A DNA stretch of 64,000 nucleotides from Clostridia bacterium. GTDB lineage: Bacteria > Bacillota > Clostridia > Christensenellales > CAG-138. Shown piece by piece: positions 41,436 through 62,199 of this stretch; the first letter of the stretch is position 1; every line of letters starts with the position of its first letter. The stretch spans positions 1,856-65,855 of the forward strand of contig JAFXSG010000048.1 in assembly GCA_017525875.1 (NCBI GenBank), given 5' to 3'. The notes below the pieces were generated by a model that saw only the letters and a program-made list of their open reading frames with translations, did no database searches and had not been told where the DNA came from. The position numbers and the translations under genes are program-made.

Positions 41436-42573
41436 AGCTGATATCGTCATCATCGGCGCCGGCATGTCCGGCTGCTCCATCGCCTACAATCTCGCCGTCC
41501 GCGGTGCGAAAAACATCGTGGTGCTGGAAAAGGGCTTCATCTGCTCCGGCTCCACCGGCGCGTGCGGCGCGGGCTTCCGCATGCAGTGGGGCACCGAAAT
41601 GAACTGCCGCATGTCCAAGTTCTCCACGGAGTTCTTTGAGCACGCGAACGAGATCCTCGAATACGACGGGGATATCGAGCTGCGCCAGAGCGGCTATCTG
41701 ATGATCGCCGACACCGAGAAGGAGCTCACCCAGTTCCGCAAGAACATCGAGGTGCAGCACGCCTGCGGCATCCCCTCCCGCATGGTCAGCCTTGAGGAAG
41801 CGAAGGAGATCGTCCCCCACCTCAACACCTCCATCCTTTCCGGCGCCGCCTACTGCCAGAAGGACGGTTTTTTGAACCCGCACAAGACGACGGACGCCTT
41901 CTACAAGGCCGCCAAGCGCCTGGGCGTTGAGTTCAACACCTATACCGAGGTGACCGGCATCAAGGTCGAAAAGGGAAGGATCGTCGGCGTTCAGACCAAT
42001 AAGGGCTATATCGAGACCCCGATCGTCGTCAACGCCGCCAATGCCTGGTCCCAGGGCATCGCGAAGATGGTGGGCGTGGACCTGCCGCTGTATTCCGAGC
42101 GCCACCAGATCCTCGTCACCGAACCCGTCGAGCCCATGCAGGACCCGATGGTCATGGCGTTCAACCTGAACCTCTACGTTCAGCAGACGCCGCACGGCTC
42201 GTTCATCATGGGCCGCAGCGACTCCTCGGAGCCGAGGGACCTTCGCAGGACCTCCTCGTGGCACTTCCTTGAGGAGATGGCAAAGACCATCGACAACGTG
42301 CTGCCCGCCATCGGCAAGCTGCGCGTCATCCGCCAGTGGGCCGGCCTCTACAATATGTCGCCCGACCGCCAGCCCATCTACGACAAGGTGGAGGAGGTCG
42401 AGGGCTTCTACGTTGCCTGCGGCTTCAGCGGCCACGGCTTCATGTTCGGCCCCGTCACCGGCACGGTCATGAGCGAAATGATCCTCGGCCTCGAGCCCAC
42501 GATCGACGCGTCGAGGCTGAAGCTCACCCGCTTTGCCGAGGGCAATCTGTTCACCGAGCCTTCCGTCGTTTGA
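41425..42573 (+). CDS. FAD-dependent oxidoreductase (DAO family; sarcosine oxidase beta / L-proline dehydrogenase beta-like)
   Basis: ADIVIIGAGMSGCSIAYNLA (FAD GxGxxG) and a C-terminal GFSGHGFMFGP motif. Confidence 0.75.
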   Translation: MKTKADIVIIGAGMSGCSIAYNLAVRGAKNIVVLEKGFICSGSTGACGAGFRMQWGTEMNCRMSKFSTEFFEHANEILEYDGDIELRQSGYLMIADTEKELTQFRKNIEVQHACGIPSRMVSLEEAKEIVPHLNTSILSGAAYCQKDGFLNPHKTTDAFYKAAKRLGVEFNTYTEVTGIKVEKGRIVGVQTNKGYIETPIVVNAANAWSQGIAKMVGVDLPLYSERHQILVTEPVEPMQDPMVMAFNLNLYVQQTPHGSFIMGRSDSSEPRDLRRTSSWHFLEEMAKTIDNVLPAIGKLRVIRQWAGLYNMSPDRQPIYDKVEEVEGFYVACGFSGHGFMFGPVTGTVMSEMILGLEPTIDASRLKLTRFAEGNLFTEPSVV

Positions 42574-42613
42574 CGCGGGGTCCGGGCGGACAGATCAAAA
42601 CCGCAAAACAAAA

Positions 42614-42646
42614 GGGATGGGATCCTCTCGGGTCCCATCCCTTTAT
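42614..42646. terminator. Bidirectional hairpin terminator between convergent operons
   Basis: GGGATGGGA...TCCCATCCC flanked by an A-run and a T-run. Confidence 0.7.
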
Positions 42647-42698
42647 CATGCTCCGTCAGTTCGCTTTTCTTCTTTTTGAAATGGTCGTCCTGCGCCCG

Positions 42699-43709
42699 TC
42701 AATTCGGCTCGATCATCAGGATCAGTCCCGATCTTGATACGCTGTATCTCAGAGCGTTCGAACCAAACCCCGGGATCGTGTATGCCTTATGGGAATCGAT
42801 CAGATCCCGCTCGGCCTGTTCCGCAGAAGCTCTTGTCTTAAACTTCAAATAGAACTTTTTTGAATACCGGAGCTGCTGTGCGGCGATCGCGCTCGCCTGC
42901 TGGAACGAGTATCTGTCAAGAAACCACCCGCGGTACTTGAAATAATCGAACCTCTTGCCGAAGTTCTGCGGAATGAACTGCCCTGCGGCAATAACATGGG
43001 TCCGGAGCAGCTCCTGAAGATCCAGGCAGAAGAAATCATGCGACAGGTTGTCGCCGCCCGCGCCGTTCGTTACCCTCGGATCATCCCAGGTGACGTCGAC
43101 GAAGTAGTATCCGTCGCTGAGCTTTATATAGTTCCACTCATGGTCCACCGCACCGGTCCGTGCCGAACTCGACCTGCCCGCTACGCGGCCGCACTCTACC
43201 CCGATCTTCTGCATCAGGACCTGGAAGGCAGCCGCATACCCGGCGCAAACGGCGCGGCGCTGCACAAGGCAGCCGTAAGCATCGTAGCAATGCGGCTCTG
43301 CCTGCACGTAATCGACGTCGTTAACGATGCGGTCATGCAGATAAAGTATCTGCTCATAAAGGTCCGATGAGCTGCGCATTGCGTCTCTGACGTATCCGGC
43401 GGCGACGTTTTCCAGCTGCCGGCGCATTGCCGGGACGGCGGATAATGCGCATGCGAAGTTTGGCCTGAATTCCAGCGTTATACTGCTGCCGCGGGTCGTG
43501 GTGGTGCTGCTGCTTCCGTTTGAAAGCCAGAAGTATTCCGGGTGATCCCGAAGAACGGCCTTATAGACCCGCTTAACAAAATCGTAGTTTTGCTGCTGAA
43601 ATACCCAAACGGGCTTGTATGACTCTATCAGGCCGACGATCTCATTGTAGCACCTCTGCTCCGCAGCGGTCAGCGTCCCGCTGCCGTTTCCCGAGTTGTT
43701 GAAAAACAT
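42699..43709 (-). CDS. Transglutaminase-like cysteine protease-fold protein (no signal peptide)
   Basis: CAGYAAAFQVLMQKIGVECGRVAG ... DHEWNYIKL.DGYYFVDVTWDD (a Cys-His-Asp triad arrangement). It is the last gene of the operon. Confidence 0.75.
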   Translation of the reverse strand: MFFNNSGNGSGTLTAAEQRCYNEIVGLIESYKPVWVFQQQNYDFVKRVYKAVLRDHPEYFWLSNGSSSTTTTRGSSITLEFRPNFACALSAVPAMRRQLENVAAGYVRDAMRSSSDLYEQILYLHDRIVNDVDYVQAEPHCYDAYGCLVQRRAVCAGYAAAFQVLMQKIGVECGRVAGRSSSARTGAVDHEWNYIKLSDGYYFVDVTWDDPRVTNGAGGDNLSHDFFCLDLQELLRTHVIAAGQFIPQNFGKRFDYFKYRGWFLDRYSFQQASAIAAQQLRYSKKFYLKFKTRASAEQAERDLIDSHKAYTIPGFGSNALRYSVSRSGLILMIEPN

Positions 43710-43732
43710 ATTCGTTCCCTCTCTCCGATCGT

Positions 43733-43966
43733 TTACAGCATCAGCTTTATCTTGTGCAGGAAGTATATGCAGGCTTCCTTTTCGGTGCCGAACTCCATAA
43801 GCTCATATCTTCTCCCGCGTTCACCTCTGAACACGATCCACTTGCCGTTCTCCTCCATGATGCAAAGAGCTTCCTCGGCATAGCGGCCTATACCGCAGTG
43901 ACGGGGCGGCGCTCCGATTTTGACCAATGCCTGCTTAAGCAATTCGATATAGTTTACTTCTTCCAT
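43733..43966 (-). CDS. Small (77 aa) putative immunity protein for the TNT toxin
   Basis: AAGGTGA RBS. It starts 7 nt after the toxin stop. The call rests on position only. Confidence 0.5.
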   Translation of the reverse strand: MEEVNYIELLKQALVKIGAPPRHCGIGRYAEEALCIMEENGKWIVFRGERGRRYELMEFGTEKEACIYFLHKIKLML

Positions 43967-43973
43967 TCCGGGA

Positions 43974-44684
43974 TCACCTTATCTTCATCATTGTTCTGTT
44001 CGGGTTGTTCGGGTTGGACATTTCAGCAAAGCTCTGTGAAAAATGGTACTGCTGTCCGCCGCCGACTTCTCCGAAATTCGGGGCTGCCTTGCCGCTGGTG
44101 CAGTTCACCGGCTTTATGATCTGGTATTCGTGATACTCCTGGGAGTTCTCTTCATAAGGCAGCGACAGTTTCGAATGATCCGTCCCCACATCCGTTGCGT
44201 TGGATCCGAAGTCGCTCCCGTATCTGGCAATGACCTTGCCGGGTTCAAGCGTTGTTTCGTCTATCTTCTCGTTCTTGTCAAAGCCTTCCCCGTCGGAGTG
44301 CTTTGCATACGCGTCCCAGTCTATCGACCACTCGCCCGTCTCGTTGTAGTTTTCGCTGTATTTAATGTATTTCTCATCCTTAACGATCGGCACTTCCGGG
44401 ACAAGCTTGCCGTCCTTATTAAGGGCCGGTTCTTCTTTGGACTGTATAACCGTTTCTTCGCCTTTTTCGCTCTTGGTAAAGCTGACATCCGTCAGCAGTT
44501 CTTCTTCGTATTCATGCGGATCGTATCCGGGGTCGTACAAGTCCTTCTCGCTTTCATCCGTAAACAGATCGCTGTTTTCAGTTTCACCGCTCTCGATGCC
44601 GCTCTCAAAAGCTTCGCCCGAAGATTCGCCGCTTCCGCCCTGGCTTCCGTTATTGCCGGAATCTCCGCCTTCTTCGCCTGGCAT
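43974..44684 (-). CDS. TNT-domain (NAD+ glycohydrolase) toxin with an acidic disordered N-terminus
   Basis: GGGAGGAA RBS. The C-terminus IARYGSDFGS...KLSLPYEENSQEYHEYQIIKPV...GKAAPNFGEVGGGQQYHF matches the TNT consensus (RxG ... LP ... YxVxKP ... GxxAPxFGxxGGGxQ). Confidence 0.75.
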   Translation of the reverse strand: MPGEEGGDSGNNGSQGGSGESSGEAFESGIESGETENSDLFTDESEKDLYDPGYDPHEYEEELLTDVSFTKSEKGEETVIQSKEEPALNKDGKLVPEVPIVKDEKYIKYSENYNETGEWSIDWDAYAKHSDGEGFDKNEKIDETTLEPGKVIARYGSDFGSNATDVGTDHSKLSLPYEENSQEYHEYQIIKPVNCTSGKAAPNFGEVGGGQQYHFSQSFAEMSNPNNPNRTMMKIR

Positions 44685-44733
44685 TTACTGTTCCTCCCTT
44701 GGTTTATTCTTCGCCGCATGATCGGCGCCGCGC

Positions 44734-45138
44734 TCAGATACGCGCGAACCTCGCAATGATATAGCCGTTCAGCTTCAGATTGGTCTCCGACAAGGTGTTG
44801 TTTCCGGGAATGAAGCGATAGACCTTGTCGTTGCTGTCAACGAGAATAAAATCCCAGTCTCCCCTGTCTTCAAGCGCGATCATGTCCTTCGTCTGCGGAA
44901 AACGTTTATGAAGGGAAGCCGTCCTCACGATCATGTCGGACTTCTCCATCTGTATGCTGTTGACTCCGTAGAATTCGATGTGACTGCAGCCAAGGTATCC
45001 GTAGTCGGTAATATAAGAAGCGAGCTGTTCTCCGATCCTCACGCCGACGAGTCTCTCCATTTCCGGTATGTACGACGCGTCCACCCTGTTGTAGGTAAAG
45101 TCCACGTCATTCTGATCAACAAACTCACTGAGTTTCAT
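44734..45138 (-). CDS. SMI1/KNR4 (SUKH-1) family immunity protein
   Basis: AAGGAGG RBS. It starts 2 nt after the nuclease toxin stop. YIPEMERLVGVRIGEQLASYITDYGYL is a SUKH-type N-terminal motif. Confidence 0.7.
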   Translation of the reverse strand: MKLSEFVDQNDVDFTYNRVDASYIPEMERLVGVRIGEQLASYITDYGYLGCSHIEFYGVNSIQMEKSDMIVRTASLHKRFPQTKDMIALEDRGDWDFILVDSNDKVYRFIPGNNTLSETNLKLNGYIIARFARI

Positions 45139-45140
45139 CG

Positions 45141-45923
45141 TTAAGCCTCCTTTGCTCTTGCCTTCCAGTGATCCGGGCGGTGATGGTTATTGTAGTAGTT
45201 CTCCTTCGTATTGTCGCTGCGCCAGCTTTCTTCCGCCTTTGTATGAAGCGTTGAATAGTGTTCCCCGTGTTCCGAATCCGCGGTCAGCTCCGCGAGCGGG
45301 GAATCGTATTCCTGCCCGATATGGTGCAGCTCTATTTGTTCCCCTGTTTTTGCATCAAACGGCGGACGGCCCTCTTCCATAAGCTGCCGATTGGTCATGC
45401 CGGTCTTGGGGTCGACGTAATCCATATCTATATCTTCCCTCACAAGGCAGGTACGCCCATCGACTTCGGTCTCCTTCAGGCCGGCGTTCTGATAGACCTC
45501 CAGCTCCTCCACCGAGGAGATATGATCGTTCACCTCGTCGGAATACTCGCTTTTCTCGTATATCTCGGAACGGTCCGCCTCTTCGTCCGTCTCGCCTTCC
45601 TCGGGCTGTTCTTCCTCCGGAGTTTCCTCCTCGGGCTGTTCCTCCTCCGGAGTTTCCTCCTCGGGCTGTTCCTCCTCGGGCTGTTCCTCCTCCGGAGTTT
45701 CCTCCTCGGGCTGTTCTTCCTCCGGAGTTTCCTCCTCGCCGTTCCCGTCGGACTTATCCATCAGGTCATCGTCGGCGCCTTCTTCGCCTTCATCCCCTTC
45801 GGGCTCCTCCGTTTCAACAAGATCGTCTTCCTCGCCGGGTTCTGAGGACTCATCCATTCCCTGTTCGGGATCATCGCTTTCGTTCGTGGAATCATAATCA
45901 TCTTCAGGGCACATTGCGTTCAC
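45141..45923 (-). CDS. HNH/EndoVII-fold nuclease toxin (LHH-type motif) with an acidic repeat N-terminus
   Basis: C-terminus KTGEQIELHHIGQEYDSPLAELTADSEHGEHYSTLH. The GTG start at 45923 overlaps the ATPase stop (GTGA), and an alternative ATG at 45914 has an AGGAAG RBS. About 120 N-terminal residues are D/E/P-rich. Confidence 0.7.
   Translation of the reverse strand: MNAMCPEDDYDSTNESDDPEQGMDESSEPGEEDDLVETEEPEGDEGEEGADDDLMDKSDGNGEEETPEEEQPEEETPEEEQPEEEQPEEETPEEEQPEEETPEEEQPEEGETDEEADRSEIYEKSEYSDEVNDHISSVEELEVYQNAGLKETEVDGRTCLVREDIDMDYVDPKTGMTNRQLMEEGRPPFDAKTGEQIELHHIGQEYDSPLAELTADSEHGEHYSTLHTKAEESWRSDNTKENYYNNHHRPDHWKARAKEA
45597..45737 (-). repeat. Tandem 30-nt coding repeats (EETPEEEQPE units) inside the nuclease toxin gene
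   Basis: Plus-strand unit ctcctcgggctgttc(c/t)tcctccggagtttc, iterated about 4.5 times. Confidence 0.85.
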
Positions 45924-48610
45924 TTCCTTTTGTTTATTCTTTCTTTGATATACACGCGCACCAGCTTTTCGCAGAGCTCGGGATCTGTATTCTTAAGGTC
46001 CCACGTCCGGATCAGGCAGTTCAGCATGCAGTTTTTCGCGTGCTGTCGTTCGACCGGATCCGAAAGGCCCATCTGCGCGTCAACAAAGCGCTCCATGCCG
46101 GTATCGATGGTCTTCACCACGCAGCTTTTGGTTACCGCCGGATCCAGCGACCTTGCAAACCGCCGGAAATCGTCCGCGCCGCCCTTCGTCCACAGTATCT
46201 CCTCCGGATCTTTTCTGCACAGACGGTCACAGGCCATGCAAAGCTTCGAACGCTTGTCCGTGAGCGATTCATAATCCTTGTTTCCTTCGGTGCTTATGCA
46301 GTTTTTCGCGGTTTCAAATAAAACCTGCTCGCGCGTTATTCTGTGTTTTCCGGGTTCTTCATACGAGCCTGCGAATTTGGGTTTTACGAGCTTCGGCCTG
46401 TTATCCCCCTCGGAATATACGGCGGCGACGCCCTGCCGGAGCGACGCAAGGCTGTCTATCTGCTCATCGGTCATGTGCATCGCTCCGCCGATAAGCATGC
46501 GCTCTTCTGCTGCGACCGTTCGGTGAACGATCTTCAGGTTGGTGTTCTTGATAAGGTCCGGAGCCAGTTTTGACGGGATCTGATCCGCAATGATGAAGCC
46601 CTGGCCCTTGCTGCGCAGTTCTGCAAGCAGATTGCAGAAGAATTCGACCGCTGCCCCGCGGGGATCCGCGTTTTCGCCCGAACCGCTCTGAACGTTTTTA
46701 AGCAGCCTGTGCGCTTCCTCGATCAGCATCAGATGCCTGACCTCAAGCTGGCAGTCCTCCTGCTGACGCCTGTACTCCAAAAGATTTACCAGCAGCAGGC
46801 TTATGATGAACGCCTTCACGTCGTCATCGCCGATATCCTCAAGCTCGATCACGACGCTGCCGTTCAGCAGCCGATCCATCGGGAATGAGCGGAGCACGTT
46901 CAGCGTGTCGCCCTTCGTGCCGAGCCGCATGGAGTTCACCCTCGCCTGCAGCGATCCGATCAGGTCGTTGCGCATCCTTGTATCGTAGCCCATCTCGTCC
47001 ACGATCTCCGGGATCGCATAATAGAGGTCTTCGATCGTAGGATAAACGTCCTTCCCGTTGGCGTTTCTGTCGTTATGAATATCCCAGCCATAGTCTTCGT
47101 AGATCTTGTAGATCGCCCTTTCGAGCACGTACGGCATTGGCGTGTACATTATGAAGCTGGCCTTGAACGCCGCGTAAACGAAATCGATATGAGTCTGTAT
47201 CGGTACGGTCCTGACGTTCCCGTTTTCGTCTTTGAAAGCAGCTCGCTCAAACGGATTGATGCAAAATCTGTGGGAATGCGGCCCGACGGAGCCGACGCTG
47301 TAGATCTGCAGGTCGGAATAACCGAGCTTATAGAGTTCCCAGTATTCCTTTTTGGCGGGTTCAATGACCATGAGCGGCCGCGAGGAACCCTTTGTAAGCT
47401 CGCAGATCAGGCTTTTCAAGGTGTTGGTCTTGCCCGAACCCGTAAGGCCGACCACCAGGCAGTGCCTGTTGAATTCATTTGCATCGATGCGATACGTGCT
47501 TTCGGTCTCGACCCCGGAATCGATGATCCTGCCGATGACAAGGTCTCCGCGTTCGCTCCTGTTTACGTCAAACTCCACGTAGTCGATCACCGAAAAACCG
47601 AAAGTATCGATCGTCGGAAGAGCGGCGTAGACTGCAAGCGCCTTACTGCTCAGCATCGTTGAATACCTCGGGTACTGAATGCCGCAATAGTTATCATGCA
47701 AAAACCGAAAACCGTTAACAAGCGGTTCCCTTATCGGGCGCATGCTGTAGATCGCGTGGACCGGTTCCGGCTCAGACTCGTCGCCATAGAACGCGGAAGT
47801 CAAAAGCCCGCCGAGCAAGCATGCGTTTTCTTCGGAATCGGAGCTGAAATTGATCGTTGTGCACCATTCTCCGGAGGCTATGCCCTCCGTCAGCCTTTCG
47901 CAGAAGGCCAATGCCTTTTTGATCAGCATCTCGCTGTGGGGGTATTGCTGCTTGTAGGCGACCGTTTCGAGATTGTTCTCCGACTCCGTGAACGATACTT
48001 CCGTCAGCATACTGTACTGGGATTCAAGGCGCGTCCAATCCTGCTGCTTTGCGAGCATGTCATCATTGTGCACCGGGATGGCAAAAAGCGAGAGTATCCA
48101 TGATCTTTGGCTCATGCCCTTTATCACGGAGTCGATCTGATAAACGTTTTGATAGTTTTTATTGCCGGTAGGATCGCCCTTCAGGAAACCGCCGTACACA
48201 CAGCTGCGGCCGTCGTCGATCTCCCTATATGCAAAGAGCCTGTCGCCGTTTTCTGTTTTTTCAAACCGGAGCTGAGGGAAGACGCCCGCGAGCATTTTTG
48301 AGAGGACCTCGAGCTTTTCAACGACCGTTCCGACGAACAGGGAAATGCGTTTCCCATCGCCCTTCAGGATGAATGAATACGGGATCCCAACGCTGTATAG
48401 GCCGACAAAGAAGCTGGACATAAGGCTCCATATAGGCGTTTCATCCGCGATCCACCGCTTTGAGATCTCGTTCAGCTTGATGTAGTAATATCCCTGCGTA
48501 TCTCCGGTTTCTGTGGTTTCGTCAGTTTGGGACATCGTCATTTCACGATTCATTATCTCGTAAAAAGAACCGATCTCCGCATTGCGTTTATTGATATCGC
48601 TTCTGTTCAT
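45920..48610 (-). CDS. HerA/FtsK-clade P-loop ATPase (DUF87-like) with large N- and C-terminal extensions
   Basis: Walker A HCLVVGLTGSGKTNTLKSL. Walker B RHLMLIEEAHRLL (the hhhhEEAH typical of HerA/DUF87). GFIIADQIPSKL ... NLKIVHRT. A C-terminal Cys cluster LCMACDRLC. Confidence 0.75.
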   Translation of the reverse strand: MNRSDINKRNAEIGSFYEIMNREMTMSQTDETTETGDTQGYYYIKLNEISKRWIADETPIWSLMSSFFVGLYSVGIPYSFILKGDGKRISLFVGTVVEKLEVLSKMLAGVFPQLRFEKTENGDRLFAYREIDDGRSCVYGGFLKGDPTGNKNYQNVYQIDSVIKGMSQRSWILSLFAIPVHNDDMLAKQQDWTRLESQYSMLTEVSFTESENNLETVAYKQQYPHSEMLIKKALAFCERLTEGIASGEWCTTINFSSDSEENACLLGGLLTSAFYGDESEPEPVHAIYSMRPIREPLVNGFRFLHDNYCGIQYPRYSTMLSSKALAVYAALPTIDTFGFSVIDYVEFDVNRSERGDLVIGRIIDSGVETESTYRIDANEFNRHCLVVGLTGSGKTNTLKSLICELTKGSSRPLMVIEPAKKEYWELYKLGYSDLQIYSVGSVGPHSHRFCINPFERAAFKDENGNVRTVPIQTHIDFVYAAFKASFIMYTPMPYVLERAIYKIYEDYGWDIHNDRNANGKDVYPTIEDLYYAIPEIVDEMGYDTRMRNDLIGSLQARVNSMRLGTKGDTLNVLRSFPMDRLLNGSVVIELEDIGDDDVKAFIISLLLVNLLEYRRQQEDCQLEVRHLMLIEEAHRLLKNVQSGSGENADPRGAAVEFFCNLLAELRSKGQGFIIADQIPSKLAPDLIKNTNLKIVHRTVAAEERMLIGGAMHMTDEQIDSLASLRQGVAAVYSEGDNRPKLVKPKFAGSYEEPGKHRITREQVLFETAKNCISTEGNKDYESLTDKRSKLCMACDRLCRKDPEEILWTKGGADDFRRFARSLDPAVTKSCVVKTIDTGMERFVDAQMGLSDPVERQHAKNCMLNCLIRTWDLKNTDPELCEKLVRVYIKERINKRK

Positions 48611-48661
48611 CGCTCTGTCGCCATCCTTCCTCGCCGTTCATCAGCACGTTGCCCGGAGCTG

Positions 48662-50032
48662 TCAAAACAATCCCAGTATCAGTTTCAGTATCACAAATAT
48701 AACGACTATCGTTACGATCGCCGATATCACTTTGGAGAGCACTCCGGAGAGCAGACTGCCTGCATTCGCTCCGAACCCATAAACTATCAGCATCGCGATC
48801 ACCAGTGATACCAGCAAAATGCCGACCAGCGGGAAACTTCGGCGTTTTCCCGAACTCATTCTCGAGAGCATGCCGATCTTCGAAAACGAGAACAGAAAGT
48901 ACAGCACCGTAAGGACCGCCGCAGTGATCAGCCAAGTGGTAAGCAGTTTGCCTAACTTATCGAAAAAATTCCCGCCGGCGCCGGCTGTCAATATGATGAT
49001 GAACGCAAGCACGGCGACGGCGAGTACAGCGTACATCGTGCCGCCGACGGACCGCTGAAAATTGACCGGGCTCCTGTATCCGTTGTTGACGACGTTGATC
49101 CTGCGGGCCATCAGGACGCCGTTTTTGTATTTGCCGCTGACCTCCACCTCGGAATTATCTGCGATCAGCGAGCCGCCCGAGATCGTTCCGTGTACGTTGA
49201 CCTCCACGTCCGTGTACTTCTCATTTCCGAACGTATCGACGCCTTCCGAAACCCGGACCTTAAACCTGTGCAGCAGATCCTCGGTCCTTTGGCCGTACAG
49301 CATTGCGTCAAACAGTTTTTGAGCGAACAGTCTGCGGTATCTTCCGCCTTCAATATCCGAATTGCTGTATTGGGATACCTTGCCCTTGATCTCCGTCGGC
49401 GGGAGCTTTGACTTGCCCATGCTGAACGGCAGCGGTTTTTCCCCGTTTGAGTTTGCCTGATCCGCAAGGCCGGTGTGCTGCGATCCGCTTGGGGTCAGCT
49501 GCCCTTTATCGTCTTTGCCCGTTGGCGTCAGCGGGGGCTGAACAGGCGCAGGCCAGACAGAGCCTCCTGTGTTCCGGCTGCCCCACGTCGGTTTCGCTGC
49601 GCTGCCGGAAGGCGTGCCGCCAAACGCGGAACTCCCGCCCGAAGGAGCGCCGCCGAACGCGGGATTCTTGCCGGAAGGAGCGCCGCCAAACGCGGAACTC
49701 CCGCCGGAAGGAGCGCCGCCGAACGCGGAACTGCCACCCGAAGGAGCGCCGCCAAACGCGGGATTCTTGCCGGAAGAAGCGCCGCTGAACGCGGAACTGC
49801 CGCCGGAAGAAGCGCCGCCGAACGCGGAACTGCCGCCCGAAGGAGCGCCGCCGAACACGGGAGCGCCGCCGGAACGGGTGCTGCCCGAAGGAAGGACCTG
49901 CCTGTTCGCAAGCAAGGCGTCCGGGACCATTTCTGTCTCCAGTTTAGCCGAGCAATAGGGGCAGTTGGTTTGAGTATGGTCCTTGGTATAGGGTCTGCCC
50001 GAACACTTTGGGCAATATTTTACAACGCTCAT
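48662..50032 (-). CDS. Zn-ribbon / xAFGG-repeat / four-TM membrane protein
   Basis: N-terminus YCPKCSGRP...NCPYCSAKL (CxxC..CxxC). Eight (S/P)AFGG-type repeats, a globular domain of about 150 aa, then four C-terminal TM helices. Confidence 0.8.
   Translation of the reverse strand: MSVVKYCPKCSGRPYTKDHTQTNCPYCSAKLETEMVPDALLANRQVLPSGSTRSGGAPVFGGAPSGGSSAFGGASSGGSSAFSGASSGKNPAFGGAPSGGSSAFGGAPSGGSSAFGGAPSGKNPAFGGAPSGGSSAFGGTPSGSAAKPTWGSRNTGGSVWPAPVQPPLTPTGKDDKGQLTPSGSQHTGLADQANSNGEKPLPFSMGKSKLPPTEIKGKVSQYSNSDIEGGRYRRLFAQKLFDAMLYGQRTEDLLHRFKVRVSEGVDTFGNEKYTDVEVNVHGTISGGSLIADNSEVEVSGKYKNGVLMARRINVVNNGYRSPVNFQRSVGGTMYAVLAVAVLAFIIILTAGAGGNFFDKLGKLLTTWLITAAVLTVLYFLFSFSKIGMLSRMSSGKRRSFPLVGILLVSLVIAMLIVYGFGANAGSLLSGVLSKVISAIVTIVVIFVILKLILGLF
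49598..49870 (-). repeat. Coding tandem repeats (GGAPSGGSSAFGG / GKNPAFGG) with core GCGTTCGGCGGC
   Basis: Plus-strand gccgcc(g/a)aacgc recurs about every 45 nt. Confidence 0.9.
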
Positions 50033-50034
50033 TA

Positions 50035-51612
50035 TCAGTTGCTGTCCTTTTTCGAATTATTGCCGCCGAACGCACCGCGGTTGCCGCCGAACGCACCGCG
50101 GTTGCCGCCGAACGCTCCGGGGTTGCCGCCGTTCCCGCCGAACGCTCCGGAGTTGCCGCCGAACGCACCGTGATTGCCGCCGAAAGCGCCGCGGTTGCCG
50201 CCGAACGCTCCGGGGTTGCCGCCGTTCCCGCCGAAAGCGCCGTGATTGCCGCCGTTCCCGCCGAACGCACCGTGATTGCCGCCGAACGCTCCGGGGTTGC
50301 CGCCGTTACCGCCGAATAAGCCCTTGCCGCTGTTCGGTTTTTCATCAGCGGAAGTGCTGAAGCTGATACGCTTGGTATCATTGTTGTTGTTCTTGTCTTC
50401 GGAAAGCTGTTTGAAGCCGCCGGGGCCGCCGTCTCCGCCGCCCGGTCCGCCGCCGACCGTTGTCGGCAGCTGTACGCCGGTCGAGACAGCGTAGCACAGC
50501 GTTCCCAGTACGACCGCCCACGCAAGGCAGAACATCAATCTCACCATCGAAACAGGCAGTATCCTTGACAGGAACTCCATTATCAGCGCGCCGCCGATGC
50601 AGAGCAGGATATACACAAGAACACTGTTATTCATAGTGCTTTTAATGTTCTGTGCTGCAAGTTTTTTCATCAGCGACCAGAAGACGCCGACTATTGAAAG
50701 GAAACCGATCCTCATCGCGCAGTACAGCCCGTCTTTCTCCATCATGAATCTTGCGGAAAGCAGGTTGCGCTCAAGGTTGTTGGACGCCGCCTTTTTCATG
50801 CTTGCCGCAAGGTTTGAGGCATCGTCGCAATAGACGTAGACGCCGCCGGTCAGGTTTGCGATCCTTTTAAGGAAACCTGAGTTGCAGCCTCCGAAGCCCA
50901 CGCTGCAAATCGAAACGCCGTTGGCAACGCAGTCTTTCGCAACGTCGCGCATACCGAAAGCGGAGCTCCCGCCGTCGCTGAAAAGGATTATCCTCGGTTG
51001 ATCGCCTGCGCCGGTGAGCTTACCTGAACGCAGATCATCCAGGACCGTTCTGACCGAACCCAGGATATTCGTTCCGCCGTATGACTGGAAGTTCAGTTGA
51101 GCGGCGTCGCCGGGAGCATATTTCCCCATACCCTTCAGCAGCGTGGCCCCGGACTCGAATTTATAAACGGCATAAGGAAGTTCTGCCGAATCCTTCATTA
51201 TCTCTTCGATGGCAGAGGGCCTTACGTTTGAGCGGTCGTTTCCCGCCATTGAGCCGGAATCATCGATCAGGAAGATGTATGAGGTCGGCCGGATATCGTT
51301 TTTTCCGCCAAGTTCATACAGGAATTCGAACACACCGGCCAGCAGGAACACCAGGATCAGAACAATGGCTAAAAGCCCGATCGATCCCTTGGTGTTGCGG
51401 GCGTTGTTTGTGTTGCTGAGATCGACCTGAAAATAGCCGCAGGCCGTTACGACAATGCAGAGGATGATCCCGAAGATCAGGAAATAAAGGGCGACGCCAA
51501 GCGGAGTGAACATTTTCTGCGTCAAGGTGTTGAACAGCAGCTCGCCCAGCAGCCAGAACACCACTCCCACTATCAATGATATCAGCGGCAGCTTGATTTT
51601 GTTCTCTTTCAC
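50035..51612 (-). CDS. Polytopic membrane protein with a central MIDAS-vWA domain and a C-terminal GAFGGN repeat tail
   Basis: GTG start. Three N-terminal TM helices. vWA domain YIFLIDDSGSMAGNDRS ... GGTNILG ... IILFSDGGSS, then three more TM helices and 11 xFGG repeats. Its stop is 2 nt from the next start. Confidence 0.8.
   Translation of the reverse strand: MKENKIKLPLISLIVGVVFWLLGELLFNTLTQKMFTPLGVALYFLIFGIILCIVVTACGYFQVDLSNTNNARNTKGSIGLLAIVLILVFLLAGVFEFLYELGGKNDIRPTSYIFLIDDSGSMAGNDRSNVRPSAIEEIMKDSAELPYAVYKFESGATLLKGMGKYAPGDAAQLNFQSYGGTNILGSVRTVLDDLRSGKLTGAGDQPRIILFSDGGSSAFGMRDVAKDCVANGVSICSVGFGGCNSGFLKRIANLTGGVYVYCDDASNLAASMKKAASNNLERNLLSARFMMEKDGLYCAMRIGFLSIVGVFWSLMKKLAAQNIKSTMNNSVLVYILLCIGGALIMEFLSRILPVSMVRLMFCLAWAVVLGTLCYAVSTGVQLPTTVGGGPGGGDGGPGGFKQLSEDKNNNNDTKRISFSTSADEKPNSGKGLFGGNGGNPGAFGGNHGAFGGNGGNHGAFGGNGGNPGAFGGNRGAFGGNHGAFGGNSGAFGGNGGNPGAFGGNRGAFGGNRGAFGGNNSKKDSN
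50056..50325 (-). repeat. Coding tandem repeats (GAFGGN[HRS/GGNP]) with core GCGTTCGGCGGC
   Basis: 21-30-nt units; plus strand gccgccgaacgc(a/t)ccg. Confidence 0.9.
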
Positions 51613-51663
51613 CGATCGTTCACCTTCCTATAAGTAATCGACGTTCCGGCAGATCCGCCGGAT

Positions 51664-51768
51664 GAAAAAACGTTTTTTCACAATCTATACCGAAAGCGCC
51701 GGTCAAGCACGGCGCATTCGGTATAGCTGTTTATGCGCGTCCGCGGCAAGCAAATGCCGCGGACGCGC
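51664..51768 (-). other. Three consecutive hairpins in the 169-nt intra-operon spacer
   Basis: A 14-bp perfect stem GCGCGTCCGCGGCA/TGCCGCGGACGCGC (51735-51768). A 10-bp stem CTATACCGAA/TTCGGTATAG enclosing an inner stem (51685-51726). The palindrome GAAAAAACGTTTTTTC (51664-51679). Confidence 0.7.
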
Positions 51769-51781
51769 CCGGTTGATGGTA

Positions 51782-54700
51782 TTATAAGTCTCCGGTCTCC
51801 TTGAGGTCCTCAAGGGCTTTTGCGAAAGCCTTGAAGTTGCCGATAAGCGTTTCTGCGTCGTTCGGCCCTGCGCACTTCTTCGGAATATTGTAATACTCGA
51901 AGTAATTGGAGGATGCAAGCTGCTTTCCGATATCCCTGTTCCTTGCGGCGATATCCCTCATTGTGAACAGAGACGAGTTAAGGGCGGCATTGATGTTGTC
52001 AAGCACGTCCTGGCAAGACGGCAGCTTGGCGCCGCGGTTCTTGCTCTGATAATCATCGCATGCCCTGTCTATCGCGTCGGTCACGACGTCATTCAGCGCT
52101 TCCCTGACGAAAGCGGAGAAGACGATAAAGTCCATAAAGGGAACGTCGATCTTCTCGTTCTTCTTCTTGTAGTCGTCGAGGAAGAGGATCGGCTTGTCGT
52201 GTTCGTTGGCGCTGTACGTGCAGAACCAACCCTTATCGGGATCATTGGAGATCATACCGCACTGCCTTGCCCTGATATAGTAGCTGACGTTCCTGTCGAA
52301 CTTCGAAACGCCGGCAAGGTTTTCGAACAGGTTCATGCTCTTATACTCGTTGTACTTCTCAAGCAGCAGCCTGTGCATGACCATATCGGAACGGACGATG
52401 CGGTAAATGTTCTTGAGGTCGAACCTGTTGCCCGGCATGTTGGTCTGCCTTGACTTAAGGCTGTCGTTATTGATAGCCCTTTCAAGCCGAATCTCCGAAT
52501 AATACTTATGATTGTCCTCAGCGTTGATGCTGTCAAGCGCGTCTTTCCAGGTGTGGTCGCCTCCTCCGCTCCGGAGCTCGACGATCTTCTTTTCGATCCT
52601 GTCGATGAATTCCGGACTGGTGTCCCCAAGGACGCAGACGACGTATTTGTTGGTTGGATCCGTGTAGATATACCCGTTCTCGAGACCGAATTCGACGATC
52701 TTTTTGATCTCGTCATACATCTCTACGTCGTTATTGAACACCTTGCCGTTCTTTATGCAGCGTTTATCGTCCTGGATACGCGCAGAAAACTCGGGCTTAT
52801 TGATCGTTTGAACAAAATAGTCCTCCGTATCCTTGCCGTAGATCTCGGGAAGGTAAGTCTGCCATTTTTCCGAGACCTCGTTCAGATGACGCCCGGCTGA
52901 ATTCGAGACCAGTTTTTCGGCATTGAAATACTCGGACGCATAGTCCTTCATGTTCCTGACCATCTCGGGGGAGAAAGGCCTGATGCATTCGAATTCGGAG
53001 ATCTCGGTAATGAGGCCGTCCGCTACGCTCGTGCTGTATCCGCCGGGATATCTTTGCATCAGCTCCGCTTCGATCTCACGGTTAAGGTTGGGAGTATCGG
53101 CCAGGAGCACGATGTCAATGGTTTTGTCAAACTTGTTGGCAGCGGTGGTCAGTCTTTCATCGAAGGCAATCAGCGCGCTGCCGGAGATGGTATCCACTAT
53201 TCTCACGGCAGCTTCACGCAGCGCGTTGTTCCGGAGAATAACATTATTCCAGATATTGTTCAAAGCCTCGATATCTATGGCCTCGTTATTGCCGTTGCCC
53301 CAGACGATCTGTTCCTTATTGCCGTATACGAGCACGACGAACTTCTCGAGCTTGTCCCCGATGATCGGCTGTATCGCGTCGCTGAACACATTACGGAGTT
53401 TATCACAGAGCAGATCGGGAGAATTGATATACGTCTGCCAGTTCCCGCGCTCGTCGGCGCTGAACAGCAGATCGGTCAGGTTATTCTGGATCAGCTGCAT
53501 AGTCTCGGGATCAGCTACCATGCCTTCGAACATCTTCTCGAACAAGTCGTTCCGTTCCATCGCGCCGTCCAGATTGAACGCGTTGAGTGAGAACACGGTG
53601 CGCCTTTCCTCATGCCTGAGATAGTATTTTGCGAAGATATCCGAATCCTCGTTCAGGATATCGGCAAGGTTCATTATGATCGGAGTGTAGATCTCGAAGG
53701 TCTCGTTGCTGTATGTGCGCAGCTGATTGATCAGCATCCCGATGAACTGCTGCATGTAATTGTTTATAAAGAGGCTGTCGAAATACGCATCCGAATATGC
53801 TGCGCACGCGCCGATAAAGGTTTCGACCTCCTCGTCATGCGGGTTGGAATCCTTCTGCAGAGTTTCTTTTGCGGCCTCAAGATTGTTCTGCTGCTGCGCA
53901 AGCGCTGTATTCGCTTGCGTGAGCGCGTCCGGAAGCGTGTTATAGATATCGGTAAGGATTCCGATAAGTCCCTGGATGTGAACGTTGCCGCCTCCGTCAG
54001 TACCTGCGAGGATGACGTTCGCGCCTACGGGGCCGTACTCCTCCCAAAGATTAGCCGCCCTGCCGTCAGGCATATAGAAAGCGCTCTTGCCCTCAAGGAG
54101 CTGCTGCACGGTATAAACGATGTTGGAAACGCATGTATCAAGGCCGGTCATGGAGTTTATCTTTATCTCCGCCGCTTCTTTCGCCGCCAGGATGGATTCA
54201 TCAAGGCCTTTCATCTTCCCCAGCCACTGTGTGCCGATCCTTTGAGGATACTTATCTTTTCCGATCCTTAAGCTCTGTGAGCTGATGCCCTTTTTGTCTT
54301 TGATCGAACGAAGTATGTCATGGGCCGAGTCGATACCGAGGCCGCCGGCGATATAGTGCGCGTCATCGGTGGTGAATTTGAACGCACGCTTATAGCGCTC
54401 AATGATCTGCGCAAACGCCTTGTTCGCGACGTACGCCGCCATCTCGTTCTTCGGCAGATACACGGAGCGGTAGCCGAACGAGGAGAAGGAGTTGTTCATA
54501 AACGCGGGGAAATAGGTATTCTTTATGCCGCAGGGATCCGGATCGACCCCTGCTTCGGGAATACCCACGACGTCCGTTTCCCAGGTGCCGACGTTTCTTC
54601 CGATATTGCACAGCGTACTGATGATCGACTGGCGCTTTGTTCTGTCAACTGCGTCGATCTGCCCCGGGCGGAACATGTTGAGGATGCTTTCGGCCACGCA

Positions 54701-55615
54701 CTCGATCGTCTCTTCAAACCTGTTGACCTGAGGCGTAGCGGAGACCATGAAAGCATACCCGCGCTTGAAGATCGGCTTGCTGCAGGTCCGTTCTCCGCCC
54801 GCCGGGTCTACAACGTGCAGCGTATATACCGGTTCTATCTCTGCCTCGCTGCCAACGTTCATAAAATAGCTGAGCTCCTTCATTGCCGCATAGCCGTTCT
54901 GCTGGACCGTTTTCCATTTAGCGGCATTCTCGCCGACTTCCGGAATGGATCTCTGAACGTCCGGAGTGTAGAATATGCCGTAAAGATTTGTCGATATGCC
55001 GTCTTCCAGGCCCAATTTCTCGAGGATCATCCTAACCATATAGGAGATATCGATAAAGGTGCCGCTGCCGGTGCCGCCGGAAATACCGGCGCAGATAACC
55101 ACTTCGATAATGCCGTTTGCGGAAAAGCCTTTGATCAGGTTTTTGATCGTTTTCTCAAGCGCGGCATATTTTTGAGTACCGCAGAGCAAAACACGGCCGA
55201 CTACACGCCTGCTCTTGGCGCCGGTCTCATCGATGATCTCCGAGGGCACGTCCGTACTCAGCCAGTCCTTGACGATCTCGGGCCGGTCGATGAGCAGGCG
55301 CTGTGAATCCTTATCATACAGCTCAAAGATCTCATTGACAACAATGTTGCCTCCGTTCTCCCGTTTCAAAGCCTTGACGTCGTTTTCGTCAGTATCTATG
55401 CACATGAACTTTACGTCAGGGTTCTGTTCAAACTTGGCCTCGTAGGCGCCTTTGATCTTGCTGACGGTCTGACAGCCCGCACCGCCGATGCCGATGAACA
55501 GTATCCTGCTGTTGGTGTTCAGCTTATGCCTGTTGACCTTGCCCAGAATGCTGCCGCCTTTTTTTACGGACAGTTCTTTGAGCAGTTCTCTTGCTTCTTC
55601 CTGTGTGATAGGCAT
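51782..55615 (-). CDS. Giant (1277 aa) tubulin/FtsZ-like GTPase-domain protein
   Basis: AAGGAGAAAG RBS. The N-terminal 230 aa or so carry ILFIGIGGAGCQTV (T1-like GxGGxG), CIDTDEND, ETGAKSRRVVGRV (T3-like) and VVICAGISGGTGSGTFIDISY (tubulin signature GGGTGSG). The remaining ~1000 aa are mostly helical-looking and unassigned. Confidence 0.8.
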   Translation of the reverse strand: MPITQEEARELLKELSVKKGGSILGKVNRHKLNTNSRILFIGIGGAGCQTVSKIKGAYEAKFEQNPDVKFMCIDTDENDVKALKRENGGNIVVNEIFELYDKDSQRLLIDRPEIVKDWLSTDVPSEIIDETGAKSRRVVGRVLLCGTQKYAALEKTIKNLIKGFSANGIIEVVICAGISGGTGSGTFIDISYMVRMILEKLGLEDGISTNLYGIFYTPDVQRSIPEVGENAAKWKTVQQNGYAAMKELSYFMNVGSEAEIEPVYTLHVVDPAGGERTCSKPIFKRGYAFMVSATPQVNRFEETIECVAESILNMFRPGQIDAVDRTKRQSIISTLCNIGRNVGTWETDVVGIPEAGVDPDPCGIKNTYFPAFMNNSFSSFGYRSVYLPKNEMAAYVANKAFAQIIERYKRAFKFTTDDAHYIAGGLGIDSAHDILRSIKDKKGISSQSLRIGKDKYPQRIGTQWLGKMKGLDESILAAKEAAEIKINSMTGLDTCVSNIVYTVQQLLEGKSAFYMPDGRAANLWEEYGPVGANVILAGTDGGGNVHIQGLIGILTDIYNTLPDALTQANTALAQQQNNLEAAKETLQKDSNPHDEEVETFIGACAAYSDAYFDSLFINNYMQQFIGMLINQLRTYSNETFEIYTPIIMNLADILNEDSDIFAKYYLRHEERRTVFSLNAFNLDGAMERNDLFEKMFEGMVADPETMQLIQNNLTDLLFSADERGNWQTYINSPDLLCDKLRNVFSDAIQPIIGDKLEKFVVLVYGNKEQIVWGNGNNEAIDIEALNNIWNNVILRNNALREAAVRIVDTISGSALIAFDERLTTAANKFDKTIDIVLLADTPNLNREIEAELMQRYPGGYSTSVADGLITEISEFECIRPFSPEMVRNMKDYASEYFNAEKLVSNSAGRHLNEVSEKWQTYLPEIYGKDTEDYFVQTINKPEFSARIQDDKRCIKNGKVFNNDVEMYDEIKKIVEFGLENGYIYTDPTNKYVVCVLGDTSPEFIDRIEKKIVELRSGGGDHTWKDALDSINAEDNHKYYSEIRLERAINNDSLKSRQTNMPGNRFDLKNIYRIVRSDMVMHRLLLEKYNEYKSMNLFENLAGVSKFDRNVSYYIRARQCGMISNDPDKGWFCTYSANEHDKPILFLDDYKKKNEKIDVPFMDFIVFSAFVREALNDVVTDAIDRACDDYQSKNRGAKLPSCQDVLDNINAALNSSLFTMRDIAARNRDIGKQLASSNYFEYYNIPKKCAGPNDAETLIGNFKAFAKALEDLKETGDL

Positions 55616-55635
55616 GTTTCTTTCTCCTTTGGTGA

Positions 55636-60909: not shown

Positions 60910-60973
60910 ATTAAGAGAATCATTCAAATTGTGCCTATATATGTCCTCGTTTGCGATAAAGGAGGTTTCATAC

Positions 60974-61534
60974 ATGCTTCTGATGTATCTGTCAATGCTG
61001 CAAACGGATGAGGAACGTGCTTTTTTCACGCAGCTGTATACCAAATACCGCTATCAGATGTTTCGCGTTGCAAAAAAGTACTTGCACAACGAATTCGATG
61101 CAGAGGATATCGTTCATGACATTTTCAAGATCGTTGCAGACGATCATATGCGGGATCTTGAGAATCGAACCGATGCGGATGTGCGCCGTTTTCTCTTATG
61201 CTGTGCAAAAAACAGATCTCTCAACCTGATGAAAAGCCGCTCGAAAATAGTATCTCTGGATTCACTCATGGAGCAGGGCTGGGATGAGATCGACCTCAGT
61301 AAGGATCCGATCGACGAGATAATTGCGGATCGTGCTCTCACAAAGCAGGCTGAGGAAGCTATCGCCGGGCTGGATCCTATGTACGGTGATCCGCTTTGGA
61401 TGCATCTGAAGGGGTACAGCGCGGCAGAGGTCGCAAAGCTGTTCAACGAAAACTACGAAGCGGTCAAGAAACGCACGTACAGGGCAAAGCTCCTGCTCAG
61501 AAAAGCCGTGCTCGGGGAAGGAGGCGAAGCATGA
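60974..61534 (+). CDS. Sigma-70 family (group 4/ECF-like) RNA polymerase sigma factor
   Basis: AAAGGAGG RBS. Region 2 string DAEDIVHDIFKIV and region 4 HTH GYSAAEVAKLFNENYEAVKKRTYRAKLLLRK. Confidence 0.8.
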   Translation: MLLMYLSMLQTDEERAFFTQLYTKYRYQMFRVAKKYLHNEFDAEDIVHDIFKIVADDHMRDLENRTDADVRRFLLCCAKNRSLNLMKSRSKIVSLDSLMEQGWDEIDLSKDPIDEIIADRALTKQAEEAIAGLDPMYGDPLWMHLKGYSAAEVAKLFNENYEAVKKRTYRAKLLLRKAVLGEGGEA

Positions 61535-62199
61535 TGGAAAACAACAAGCAGATCATTGCCGATGCATACGGAAAAGCGATGGACGCCGAATACGACGCGA
61601 TCCTTGCCGAAGACGAAACCGAGCCGCATCAGTTCTCAGAACGGTTCGAGGAGAAAATGAATGACCTGATAAACGGGGATGCCTCCGAAAAGAAAGGCGC
61701 ATCCCGCCGCAGGCTCCGCCCGATATGGCTGATCGCAGCAGCGGTACTCCTGCTCGCGGCGACTGCCTGTGCCGTGCCGAGCATAAGAAAGTCCATCGCC
61801 GGATTCTTCGTTAAGATGTTCGGGGATCATGTGGAATACACCGATCCGGATATCACCAAAGACCGTATCGAAGAGGAGTATGAGCTTGTGCCGATACCTG
61901 AAGGGTTTGAGTTAAATACTGAATCTGGCAGTAAAACCCGAACGCTACGATATGAGGATGACAAGGGCAGGTATATTATCTTAATTCAAACCGTAGATAC
62001 AGAAATACAGCTATCAGTCGATAATGAGGAAGGAGAATTTTCTGAACAAACGATTGCGAACAAGTCGTGTAGAATGTACATATCTGATGATGGCTCCCAA
62101 GCATCATGGATCGAAAATGGTTACTTCTTTTCGATGACATGTTCAGCAGGAGTAGACATAACAAATATGATCGAATGCGTTAGAACAATTGATGAATAG
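61531..62199 (+). CDS. Anti-sigma factor-like membrane protein (DUF4367-type C-terminus)
   Basis: Its start overlaps the sigma gene stop (ATGA). A single TM helix (IWLIAAAVLLLAATACAV) is followed by an extracytoplasmic domain. Confidence 0.6.
   Translation: MMENNKQIIADAYGKAMDAEYDAILAEDETEPHQFSERFEEKMNDLINGDASEKKGASRRRLRPIWLIAAAVLLLAATACAVPSIRKSIAGFFVKMFGDHVEYTDPDITKDRIEEEYELVPIPEGFELNTESGSKTRTLRYEDDKGRYIILIQTVDTEIQLSVDNEEGEFSEQTIANKSCRMYISDDGSQASWIENGYFFSMTCSAGVDITNMIECVRTIDE

Follow-up and report, generated by a model that had tools for sequence, protein, structure and literature searches.

Two toxin-immunity pairs with acidic disordered leaders encoded behind a HerA/FtsK-type ATPase in a Tubulin_2 operon of a Clostridia bacterium

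Introduction

Small toxins encoded beside an FtsK/HerA-class ATPase are known from the type VIIb secretion systems of Bacillota (EssC/YueA FtsK-type ATPase, LXG and EsaD toxins). In these systems, a constant N-terminal leader precedes a variable C-terminal toxin, an immunity gene follows downstream, and LHH nucleases, SUKH proteins and NAD+ glycohydrolases (NADases) are among the components. Here, we describe an operon that shares all of these features in a 64,000-nucleotide (nt) stretch of DNA from a Clostridia bacterium (contig JAFXSG010000048.1 of assembly GCA_017525875.1; the whole stretch is called the window). In this operon, two toxin-immunity pairs with acidic, disordered toxin leaders follow the gene of a HerA/FtsK/VirB4-like ATPase. 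It differs from type VIIb systems in several ways. The genome contains neither LXG nor WXG100 genes, and in place of a helical bundle the toxins begin with a disordered polyanion that holds short motifs. The ATPase, with its single DUF87 domain, is nearer to HerA/VirB4, and it is accompanied by a giant tubulin-like GTPase, vWA and Zn-ribbon proteins instead of EssA/B or EsaA.

Other described systems resemble the operon in part. HerA-effector systems (Sir2-HerA and DUF4297-HerA) also combine a HerA-family ATPase with a nuclease or an NAD-degrading effector; the effector families are different, and the operon described here adds immunity proteins, leaders, a GTPase and vWA membrane proteins. 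Polymorphic toxin systems share the LHH, WHH and TNT toxins with SUKH immunity, the adjacent gene order, and the swapping of domains behind a shared N-terminus, which we see at the second of the two toxin positions (slot 2; PMC3113570, PMC3482391). They differ in that the first position (slot 1) is not polymorphic here and no orphan cassettes were seen. Neither a route linked to tubulin or dynamin nor an acidic disordered leader appears in the surveys of these toxins (PMC3113570, PMC3482391). FtsZl1 (Pfam Tubulin_2) operons also encode a giant Tubulin_2 GTPase with vWA membrane proteins, but no ATPase-toxin-immunity module is reported for them (PMC2875224). A further group, which we call dynamin-type modules, has a homologous ATPase, the same 143-residue LHH unit, SUKH_5 and an identical gene order. 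It differs in its dynamin-like GTPase and non-acidic LHH leaders, and it lacks a second toxin slot, a vWA protein and an FG tail.

The literature searched gave no account of an ATPase-LHH-SUKH arrangement of either the tubulin or the dynamin type. The families of the toxin and immunity domains are themselves known. The acidic motif-bearing leader, the layout of one fixed and one polymorphic slot, and the tie to a Tubulin_2/vWA/HerA-FtsK machine were not found described in that literature. We tentatively favor a reading, to which we give slightly less than an even chance, in which the toxins would be cargo dedicated to the co-encoded machine, addressed by their leaders and exported for interbacterial antagonism.

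Results

The operon is made of ten genes, from vWA protein 1 to a transglutaminase-like protein, all on the minus strand. Positions are given in window coordinates throughout.

55636-58233, minus strand: vWA protein 1
51782-55615, minus strand: Tubulin_2 GTPase, 1,277 residues
50035-51612, minus strand: vWA protein 2
48662-50032, minus strand: Zn-ribbon membrane protein
45920-48610, minus strand: HerA/FtsK/VirB4-like DUF87 ATPase (Pfam DUF87 and FtsK; matches to VirB4 and HerA in the PDB), directly upstream of toxin 1
45141-45914, minus strand: toxin 1, 257 residues, acidic disordered leader and LHH (HNH/EndoVII) nuclease
44734-45138, minus strand: SUKH_5 protein (Pfam SUKH_5)
43974-44684, minus strand: toxin 2, 236 residues, acidic leader and TNT-type NADase domain
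43733-43966, minus strand: 77-residue open reading frame (ORF), putative TNT immunity protein
42699-43709, minus strand: transglutaminase-like (papain-fold) protein, the last gene of the operon (Pfam Transglut_core)

The four ORFs of the two pairs had been picked out in a first-pass annotation of the sequence. They are present on the minus strand as described there, and both the quoted peptide strings and the gaps of 2 nt (toxin 1 to SUKH) and 7 nt (toxin 2 to the 77-residue ORF) are correct. The start of toxin 1, on the other hand, had to be moved. It had been placed at GTG 45923, overlapping the stop codon of the ATPase; the real start is ATG 45914 (MCPEDDYDS...), because all close homologues begin there and the spacing of the ribosome-binding site AAAGGAAG fits this ATG, while the site abuts the GTG. 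There is no GTGA overlap, and a gap of 5 nt separates the ATPase stop from the ATG. Both toxins are full length, with their own starts and ribosome-binding sites. Between the ATPase and the toxins, no convincing terminator or promoter was found, and the weak consensus matches there were near the chance level.

The C-terminal part of toxin 1 matches Pfam LHH (PF14411; residues 177-258, E=5e-19, 68.6 bits against a cutoff of 23.3). Over 37 sequences, residues H197, H198 and H224 are invariant, and L196, H216 and H249 are nearly so. The LHH tripeptide, which contains an HH dyad, and downstream metal-binding histidine residues are the features of this family (PMC3113570). Toxin 1 is thus assigned as an LHH/HNH nuclease of the HNH/EndoVII superfamily, with predicted deoxyribonuclease (DNase) activity. 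Homologue searches delimit a conserved nuclease unit of 143 residues, made of a helical extension and the Pfam LHH core. This unit gave 1,058 matches in a representative library; among the best 150 listed, it is C-terminal in nearly all, and most of the proteins are 150-400 residues long. One match of 593 residues carries an LXG leader. Because of this fusion to a type VII leader, the unit also serves type VII toxins and belongs to the pool of exported toxins. A search of the PDB by sequence gave no match for the unit.

The gene 2 nt behind the LHH gene encodes a match to SUKH_5 (PF14567; E=6e-8, 33.1 bits against a cutoff of 27). A SUKH gene directly follows the LHH gene in all 16 loci examined, and the SUKH_5 protein is the predicted immunity protein for toxin 1. 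Thus, the pairing of a nuclease with a SUKH-type ORF was borne out, with both members above their Pfam cutoffs.

Toxin 2 matches Pfam TNT (PF14021) at residues 145-219 (E=4e-19, 69.2 bits against a cutoff of 27), and residues 113-220 match the solved fungal TNT-type NADase (PDB ID: 8r17; phmmer E=7e-7). The motifs ARYGS, YHEY and GGxQY/F are kept in six TNT orthologues. The TNT-like module read from the letters is therefore upheld by both matches, and toxin 2 is predicted to be a TNT-type NADase. The 77-residue ORF that follows is predicted by AlphaFold2 to adopt an α-β4-α fold with a predicted local distance difference test score (pLDDT) of 94. It belongs to no Pfam family, and its model has no fold match in the PDB (best E=0.07). 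A word-indexed search returned only three close homologues. Homologues follow the TNT gene in loci L007 and L011 (42-47% identity), and in all, the gene is present in three of the six TNT loci. It is plausible from this placement that the 77-residue protein is the TNT immunity protein. The general rule cited in the first-pass annotation, that TNT needs a cognate immunity factor, does not hold uniformly, as the 77-residue partner is missing in the other three. The TNT genes in these loci (L001 13756-14415, L005 5079-5720 and L008 14061-14750) retain the conserved TNT motifs.

No NCBIfam model matches the toxins or the immunity proteins. Aside from LHH and TNT, no Pfam domain matches either toxin at E≤0.1, in agreement with the proposal that they carry no known trafficking domain. 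As judged from their sequences, the two pairs appear to be genuine toxin-immunity modules.

In front of these domains, both toxins carry acidic leaders. The features of the leaders and of the nuclease unit are as follows.

45594-45914, minus strand: toxin 1 leader (residues 1-107), 54% Asp/Glu, no predicted structure
45816-45824, minus strand: toxin 1 leader motif 1, D31-L32-V33 (motif enrichment)
45759-45767, minus strand: toxin 1 leader motif 2, D50-L51-M52 (motif enrichment)
45598-45738, minus strand: tandem repeat inside the toxin 1 leader, 15-nt unit (EE[T/Q]PE), 9.4 copies (Tandem Repeats Finder)
45144-45572, minus strand: conserved 143-residue nuclease unit (homologue search)
44475-44684, minus strand: toxin 2 leader (residues 1-70), with homologous leaders on slot-2 toxins of other loci (RelA/SpoT-like and ADP-ribosyl-cyclase-like)
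44562-44570, 44535-44543 and 44493-44501, minus strand: toxin 2 leader motifs DLF, DLY and ELL (motif enrichment)

Among the 4,822 ORFs of at least 120 residues in the genome, the N-terminal 80 residues of toxin 1 are the most negative, with 40 Asp/Glu against 1 Lys/Arg. Those of toxin 2 rank about fourth (24 Asp/Glu against 3 Lys/Arg), and no other protein in the genome has a comparable leader. AlphaFold2, run with a 37-sequence alignment, gave no secondary structure for residues 1-107 of toxin 1 (pLDDT 44-56) and a folded region for residues 108-257 (pLDDT approximately 88-96). Pfam finds no domain in either leader, and both read as acidic and non-hydrophobic. The charge ranks and the predicted disorder of toxin 1 thus confirm that the toxins begin with acidic disordered regions. 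The repeats reported in toxin 1 are also there, although their basic period is 15 nt, and the 30 nt originally given is the double unit. Homologues of toxin 1 that are 86-100% identical differ only in the copy number of this repeat, with lengths of 222-282 residues; the EE[T/Q]PE stretch is thus a spacer of free length within the leader. Among 69 acidic LHH leaders (homologues P0001-P0074), 44 start with Met-Cys, as in the window (45909-45914), and 19 with Met-Ser. The conserved Cys at position 2 sits on a cytoplasmic protein without a signal peptide.

Leucine is rare in the leaders; of approximately 70 occurrences, 53 have Glu or Asp immediately before, and the next residue is usually Y, M, V, L, C or F. 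We compared the number of such [DE]-L-hydrophobic motifs with composition-preserving shuffles, a test that overstates independence since the leader sequences are mutually related. The 21 leaders from the loci hold 45 motifs against 4.1±1.9 in the shuffles (maximum of 13 in 2,000). The 69 acidic LHH leaders, a non-redundant set, hold 147 motifs where 14.0±3.7 are expected; most of these leaders hold two or three, the first at a median residue of 31. The 29 non-acidic LHH leaders show no enrichment (14 motifs against 11.8 expected). The pattern recurs on four unrelated toxin domains. Ten of the 11 TNT homologues found have it, mostly as a triple motif ([DE]L-hydrophobic, x6, ELY, x9-10, EL[L/M]), and the eleventh is a 129-residue fragment without a leader. 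The leaders of L004, L010 and L012 do not have the exact motif; they have other repeated acid-flanked hydrophobic motifs (SMDYAS, D[IM][DE][VI]GD and GFDGGD).

We compared 14 related loci that encode the ATPase, mostly from metagenome-assembled genomes. In ten of these (L001-L009 and L011), an LHH gene of 215-320 residues with its own start lies directly after the ATPase gene and is followed by a SUKH gene. Similarity of these LHH proteins to toxin 1 of the window is confined to the C-terminal 140 residues or so (64-79% identity). The N-termini cannot be aligned, but every one of them is acidic and rich in Ser. L010 and L012, two tubulin-type loci that are more distant, have a WHH/colicin-DNase with SUKH-1/6 behind a different acidic leader. 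In the tubulin-less L031, a WHH/colicin-DNase also stands behind an acidic leader, and the 127-residue ORF downstream has no Pfam match. Twelve of the related loci have a toxin behind the ATPase, and its N-terminus is acidic in each of them regardless of the C-terminal domain. The ten LHH loci are counted as having the [DE]-L-hydrophobic motif, and the two WHH loci as having other hydrophobic repeats flanked by acidic residues. The LHH toxins being stand-alone genes with their own starts in these relatives, we could dismiss the case that they are C-terminal fragments of longer toxins. A type VII secretion system and orphan fragments were both rejected, as the toxin genes are full length with their own starts in all relatives and neither WXG100 nor LXG is encoded in the genome.

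The contents of slot 2 vary among the loci as follows.

TNT: window, L001, L005, L007, L008 and L011
ADP-ribosyl-cyclase-like domain (match just below the Pfam cutoff) with an unrelated 77-residue ORF: L002
RelA/SpoT-like domain (match just below the Pfam cutoff) with an HD_4-like protein: L009
Empty: L003, L004 and L006

The three kinds of slot-2 toxin share one alignable leader of approximately 65 residues, after which they diverge. Slot 2 therefore shows the constant N-terminal region with alternative C-terminal domains that is typical of polymorphic toxins. Strain-level polymorphism and orphan cassettes, which also mark such toxins, were not seen, with LHH occupying slot 1 in ten loci. Immunity genes follow the polymorphic-toxin rule for LHH and WHH, which come with SUKH, and in half of the TNT loci (three of six), where the 77-residue gene is present. 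No extra cassettes were found behind the bay in the related loci. The exchangeable effector bay suggested by the first-pass annotation is thus right for slot 2, which is polymorphic, and wrong for slot 1, where the HNH DNase and SUKH are fixed and have co-diverged with the ATPase.

The same core is found outside the tubulin-type systems. Six contexts of LHH homologues with non-acidic leaders were examined, and all six have the same order: one or more dynamin-like GTPases, a small membrane protein, a DUF87 ATPase of 1,020-1,190 residues, LHH and SUKH_5. Dynamin-type modules were seen in L017-L024 and also on the Escherichia coli plasmid NZ_CP035852.1. Taken together, the 16 small LHH homologues whose context was examined all show the order ATPase-LHH-SUKH, with gaps of -4 to about +20 nt, in two bacterial classes. 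The ATPases of the two types are homologous (30-34% identity over the core), and their 143-residue LHH units are 59-70% identical. Mean identities between the two types are 0.61 for LHH, 0.38 for SUKH and 0.24 for the ATPase. The LHH and SUKH distances track the ATPase distances (Mantel r=0.60 and 0.58, respectively, p<0.001), so the DNase and SUKH were inherited together with the motor and are not recent replacements. The class of leader follows the system: it is acidic in the tubulin type and non-acidic in the dynamin type, where it often starts with MIE or MLE and has a hydrophobic, helix-like pattern. FG-rich tails were found in some of the tubulin-type loci and in no dynamin-type locus, and there is no firm link between them and the acidic leaders.

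The E. coli module (L032, 41369-59770 of NZ_CP035852.1) lies on an IncI-type conjugative plasmid. It encodes two dynamin-family proteins, a hypothetical protein, a 1,084-residue ATP-binding protein, a 199-residue HNH/EndoVII nuclease and an SMI1/KNR4 protein. On a plasmid of Ruminococcus albus 7 (L033, NC_014824.1), a 435-residue HNH/EndoVII protein is followed by SMI1/KNR4 among recombinase genes. No ATPase is annotated nearby in its gene table, which is incomplete, and this locus is a possible counter-example to the strict linkage with the ATPase.

The C-terminal 135 residues or so of the ATPase (window 45920-46345, residues approximately 755-896) contain 7-11 Cys in tubulin-type systems. 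In a small sample, the net charge of this tail is +1 to +9 in ten of the 11 tubulin-type ATPases measured and -2 in one; the dynamin-type tail, also in a small sample, is mildly acidic (-3 to -4) and has few Cys. This is a weak lead that the tail may be the domain that recognizes the leader as substrate.

Discussion

The proposal that the acidic tails are a recognition or translocation signal for the co-encoded apparatus gains comparative support from the acidic N-termini in 12 of 12 loci, the shared slot-2 leader and the enrichment of the motif. The linkage to the motor, the shared leader, the toxin-immunity cassettes and the lack of another export route together suggest that the toxins are dedicated clients of the machine. 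In particular, the genome, which is 92% complete, has no WXG100 or LXG gene, and no type VII route is evident. Export is favored by analogy with type VII and type IV secretion, in which ATPases of the FtsK/HerA/VirB4 class power the export of toxins (PMC3113570, PMC3482391).

If the toxins are exported cargo, each would be built from a Ser/Asp/Gly-rich start of approximately 30 residues, a motif-bearing polyanionic disordered leader, a variable spacer and the toxin domain. The leader would carry two or three [D/E]-L-[Y/F/M/L/V/C] short linear motifs, spaced approximately 9-30 residues apart. The machine would be a membrane assembly of the tubulin-like GTPase, vWA, Zn-ribbon and HerA-FtsK-type ATPase proteins. 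We infer that the leader docks the complex of toxin and immunity protein onto this machine, for which the likeliest receptor would be the ATPase, via its Cys-rich, mildly basic C-terminal domain that is specific to the clade. The hexameric ATPase would pull on the disordered polyanion, strip off the immunity protein and move the toxin out of the cytoplasm, with neighboring bacteria as the target. Slot 1, with the HNH DNase and SUKH, would be an ancient fixed component inherited with the ATPase, and slot 2 would be a polymorphic bay in which nucleotide-targeting toxins are exchanged behind a constant leader.

Several observations weigh against export. No channel protein was identified. The toxin in slot 1 is a DNase in every case, and each of the effectors targets nucleic acids or nucleotides of the cytoplasm. 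LHH is conserved far above the ATPase and SUKH, which is not the diversifying pattern expected of arms-race weapons. A single-sequence search, limited in sensitivity, gave no orphan copy of SUKH among 120 genomes from the family. The 77-residue gene is not downstream of TNT in L001, L005 and L008, and searching with a profile gave no copy elsewhere in these assemblies either (three of the five checked). Dynamin-type relatives adjoin WYL regulators, Cas, Mrr, AAA_14 and genes of integrative and conjugative elements. Finally, the dynamin-type module on the E. coli plasmid is in a diderm, where one inner-membrane ATPase could not complete export.

Many of these points would fit an anti-phage or abortive-infection system, the main rival, which we regard as possible, though on the unlikely side. 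Here, the DNase and NADase would be suicide or anti-DNA effectors, anchored to the membrane machine through their leaders and kept inactive by SUKH and the 77-residue protein. They would be released inside the producer on infection or when the ATPase senses incoming DNA, and nothing would be exported. In the defense systems Sir2-HerA and DUF4297-HerA, the partner of the HerA-type ATPase is a nuclease or an NADase, and the ATPase of the window matches the generic HerA models of PADLOC. A DNase that is fixed and conserved to an unusual degree, the three TNT loci without an immunity gene, the absence of orphan immunity genes from the family genomes searched, the defense-island-like contexts of the dynamin-type relatives, and the presence of a module in a diderm are all in line with such a role. 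So are the patchy distribution of the operon (six of 121 genomes of the family and none of five congeners) and its location in an island of lower G+C. On the other hand, the PADLOC system models match no toxin, immunity or GTPase component, and the LHH unit is also found on an LXG secretion leader. Proteins with large extracytoplasmic vWA parts are encoded in the operon. Moreover, the exchange of effectors with cognate immunity cassettes behind a constant leader is a hallmark of exported polymorphic toxins (PMC3482391). A known defense system was rejected: for the ATPase, PADLOC gives only weak generic HerA/mad8 matches (best E=3.5e-17, mad8).

It is unlikely, in our estimate, that the acidic N-termini are not addresses at all. 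They could be inhibitors acting in cis as mimics of DNA or substrate, solubility tags or entropic spacers, and the toxins would leave by lysis or vesicle shedding promoted by the GTPase. Polyanionic tails can indeed mimic DNA, the length of the EE[T/Q]PE spacer is unconstrained, and the LHH toxins of the dynamin type have non-acidic N-termini. Tubulin-like and dynamin-like GTPases are, moreover, tied to membrane remodeling (PMC2875224). However, DNA mimicry fails to explain why the same leader is found on NADase and RelA/SpoT-like toxins. The motifs, which are conserved in position and enriched ten-fold, argue for a specific binding partner over bulk charge. The last alternative, that independent toxin-antitoxin modules or orphan toxin tips landed by chance behind the ATPase gene, draws on the mobility of such cassettes and the absence of slot 2 from several loci, and it appears close to refuted by the order ATPase-LHH-SUKH in 16 of 16 contexts, including the E. 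coli plasmid, by LHH and SUKH divergence that tracks that of the ATPase, and by two full-length toxins with their own starts and ribosome-binding sites.

Gut Clostridia (Oscillospiraceae, Acutalibacteraceae and ruminococci) are largely without characterized interbacterial weapons. If the toxins are leader-addressed cargo, a disordered acidic leader with short motifs, and not a folded domain, would be a new address tag for toxins. This tag would be tied to an undescribed machine of a giant tubulin-like GTPase and a HerA/FtsK-type ATPase, giving a concrete and testable role to the FtsZl1/Tubulin_2 proteins, which have been without a function in the literature since 2010. The tubulin-type and dynamin-type systems are linked by their shared core of ATPase, LHH nuclease and SUKH. 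With this core, the choice between secretion and phage defense becomes testable with a small set of genes, and the plasmid module of E. coli offers a culturable diderm.

A broader proposal, which we hold to be unlikely as it stands, is that HerA/FtsK/VirB4-like pumps and a cytoskeletal GTPase (tubulin-like here and dynamin-like elsewhere) might form an unrecognized protein-delivery pathway, with an intrinsically disordered leader as the address on its substrates. In the tubulin type, the leader would be a polyanionic, DNA-like thread with [DE]-L-hydrophobic docking motifs, pulled through the pore as relatives of the ATPase pull DNA.

Genomic Neighborhood

The G+C content of the operon (window 42000-58000) is approximately 0.51-0.58, compared with approximately 0.60-0.61 in the flanking housekeeping genes. 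The operon looks like an acquired island, and both the low G+C and the patchy distribution are consistent with horizontal acquisition. Upstream in the window, there is a sigma/anti-sigma pair resembling the extracytoplasmic function type (60929-62199).

The transglutaminase-like protein at the end of the operon has no signal peptide. Homologues are encoded in L004 (14096-15094, 37% identity) and in the distant, tubulin-less L031 (1906-2889; 26%, E=1e-12), and both adjoin the same type of ATPase and toxin genes. The protein could be a peptidase that processes the leaders or has an accessory role.

Downstream of the toxin bay, L005 (7101-8705), L006 (4261-6318) and L003 (15183-16058) have a sigma-70-like gene and a gene for a small Zn-finger, anti-sigma-like protein. 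In several loci, the same regions encode one or two YbjN-family proteins, the fold of which is similar to that of type III secretion chaperones. Directly after the bay, L003 (13871-15127) and L005 (5739-6989) encode a protein of 416-418 residues with a weak Card1-like endonuclease domain, which may hint at a defense-island neighborhood.

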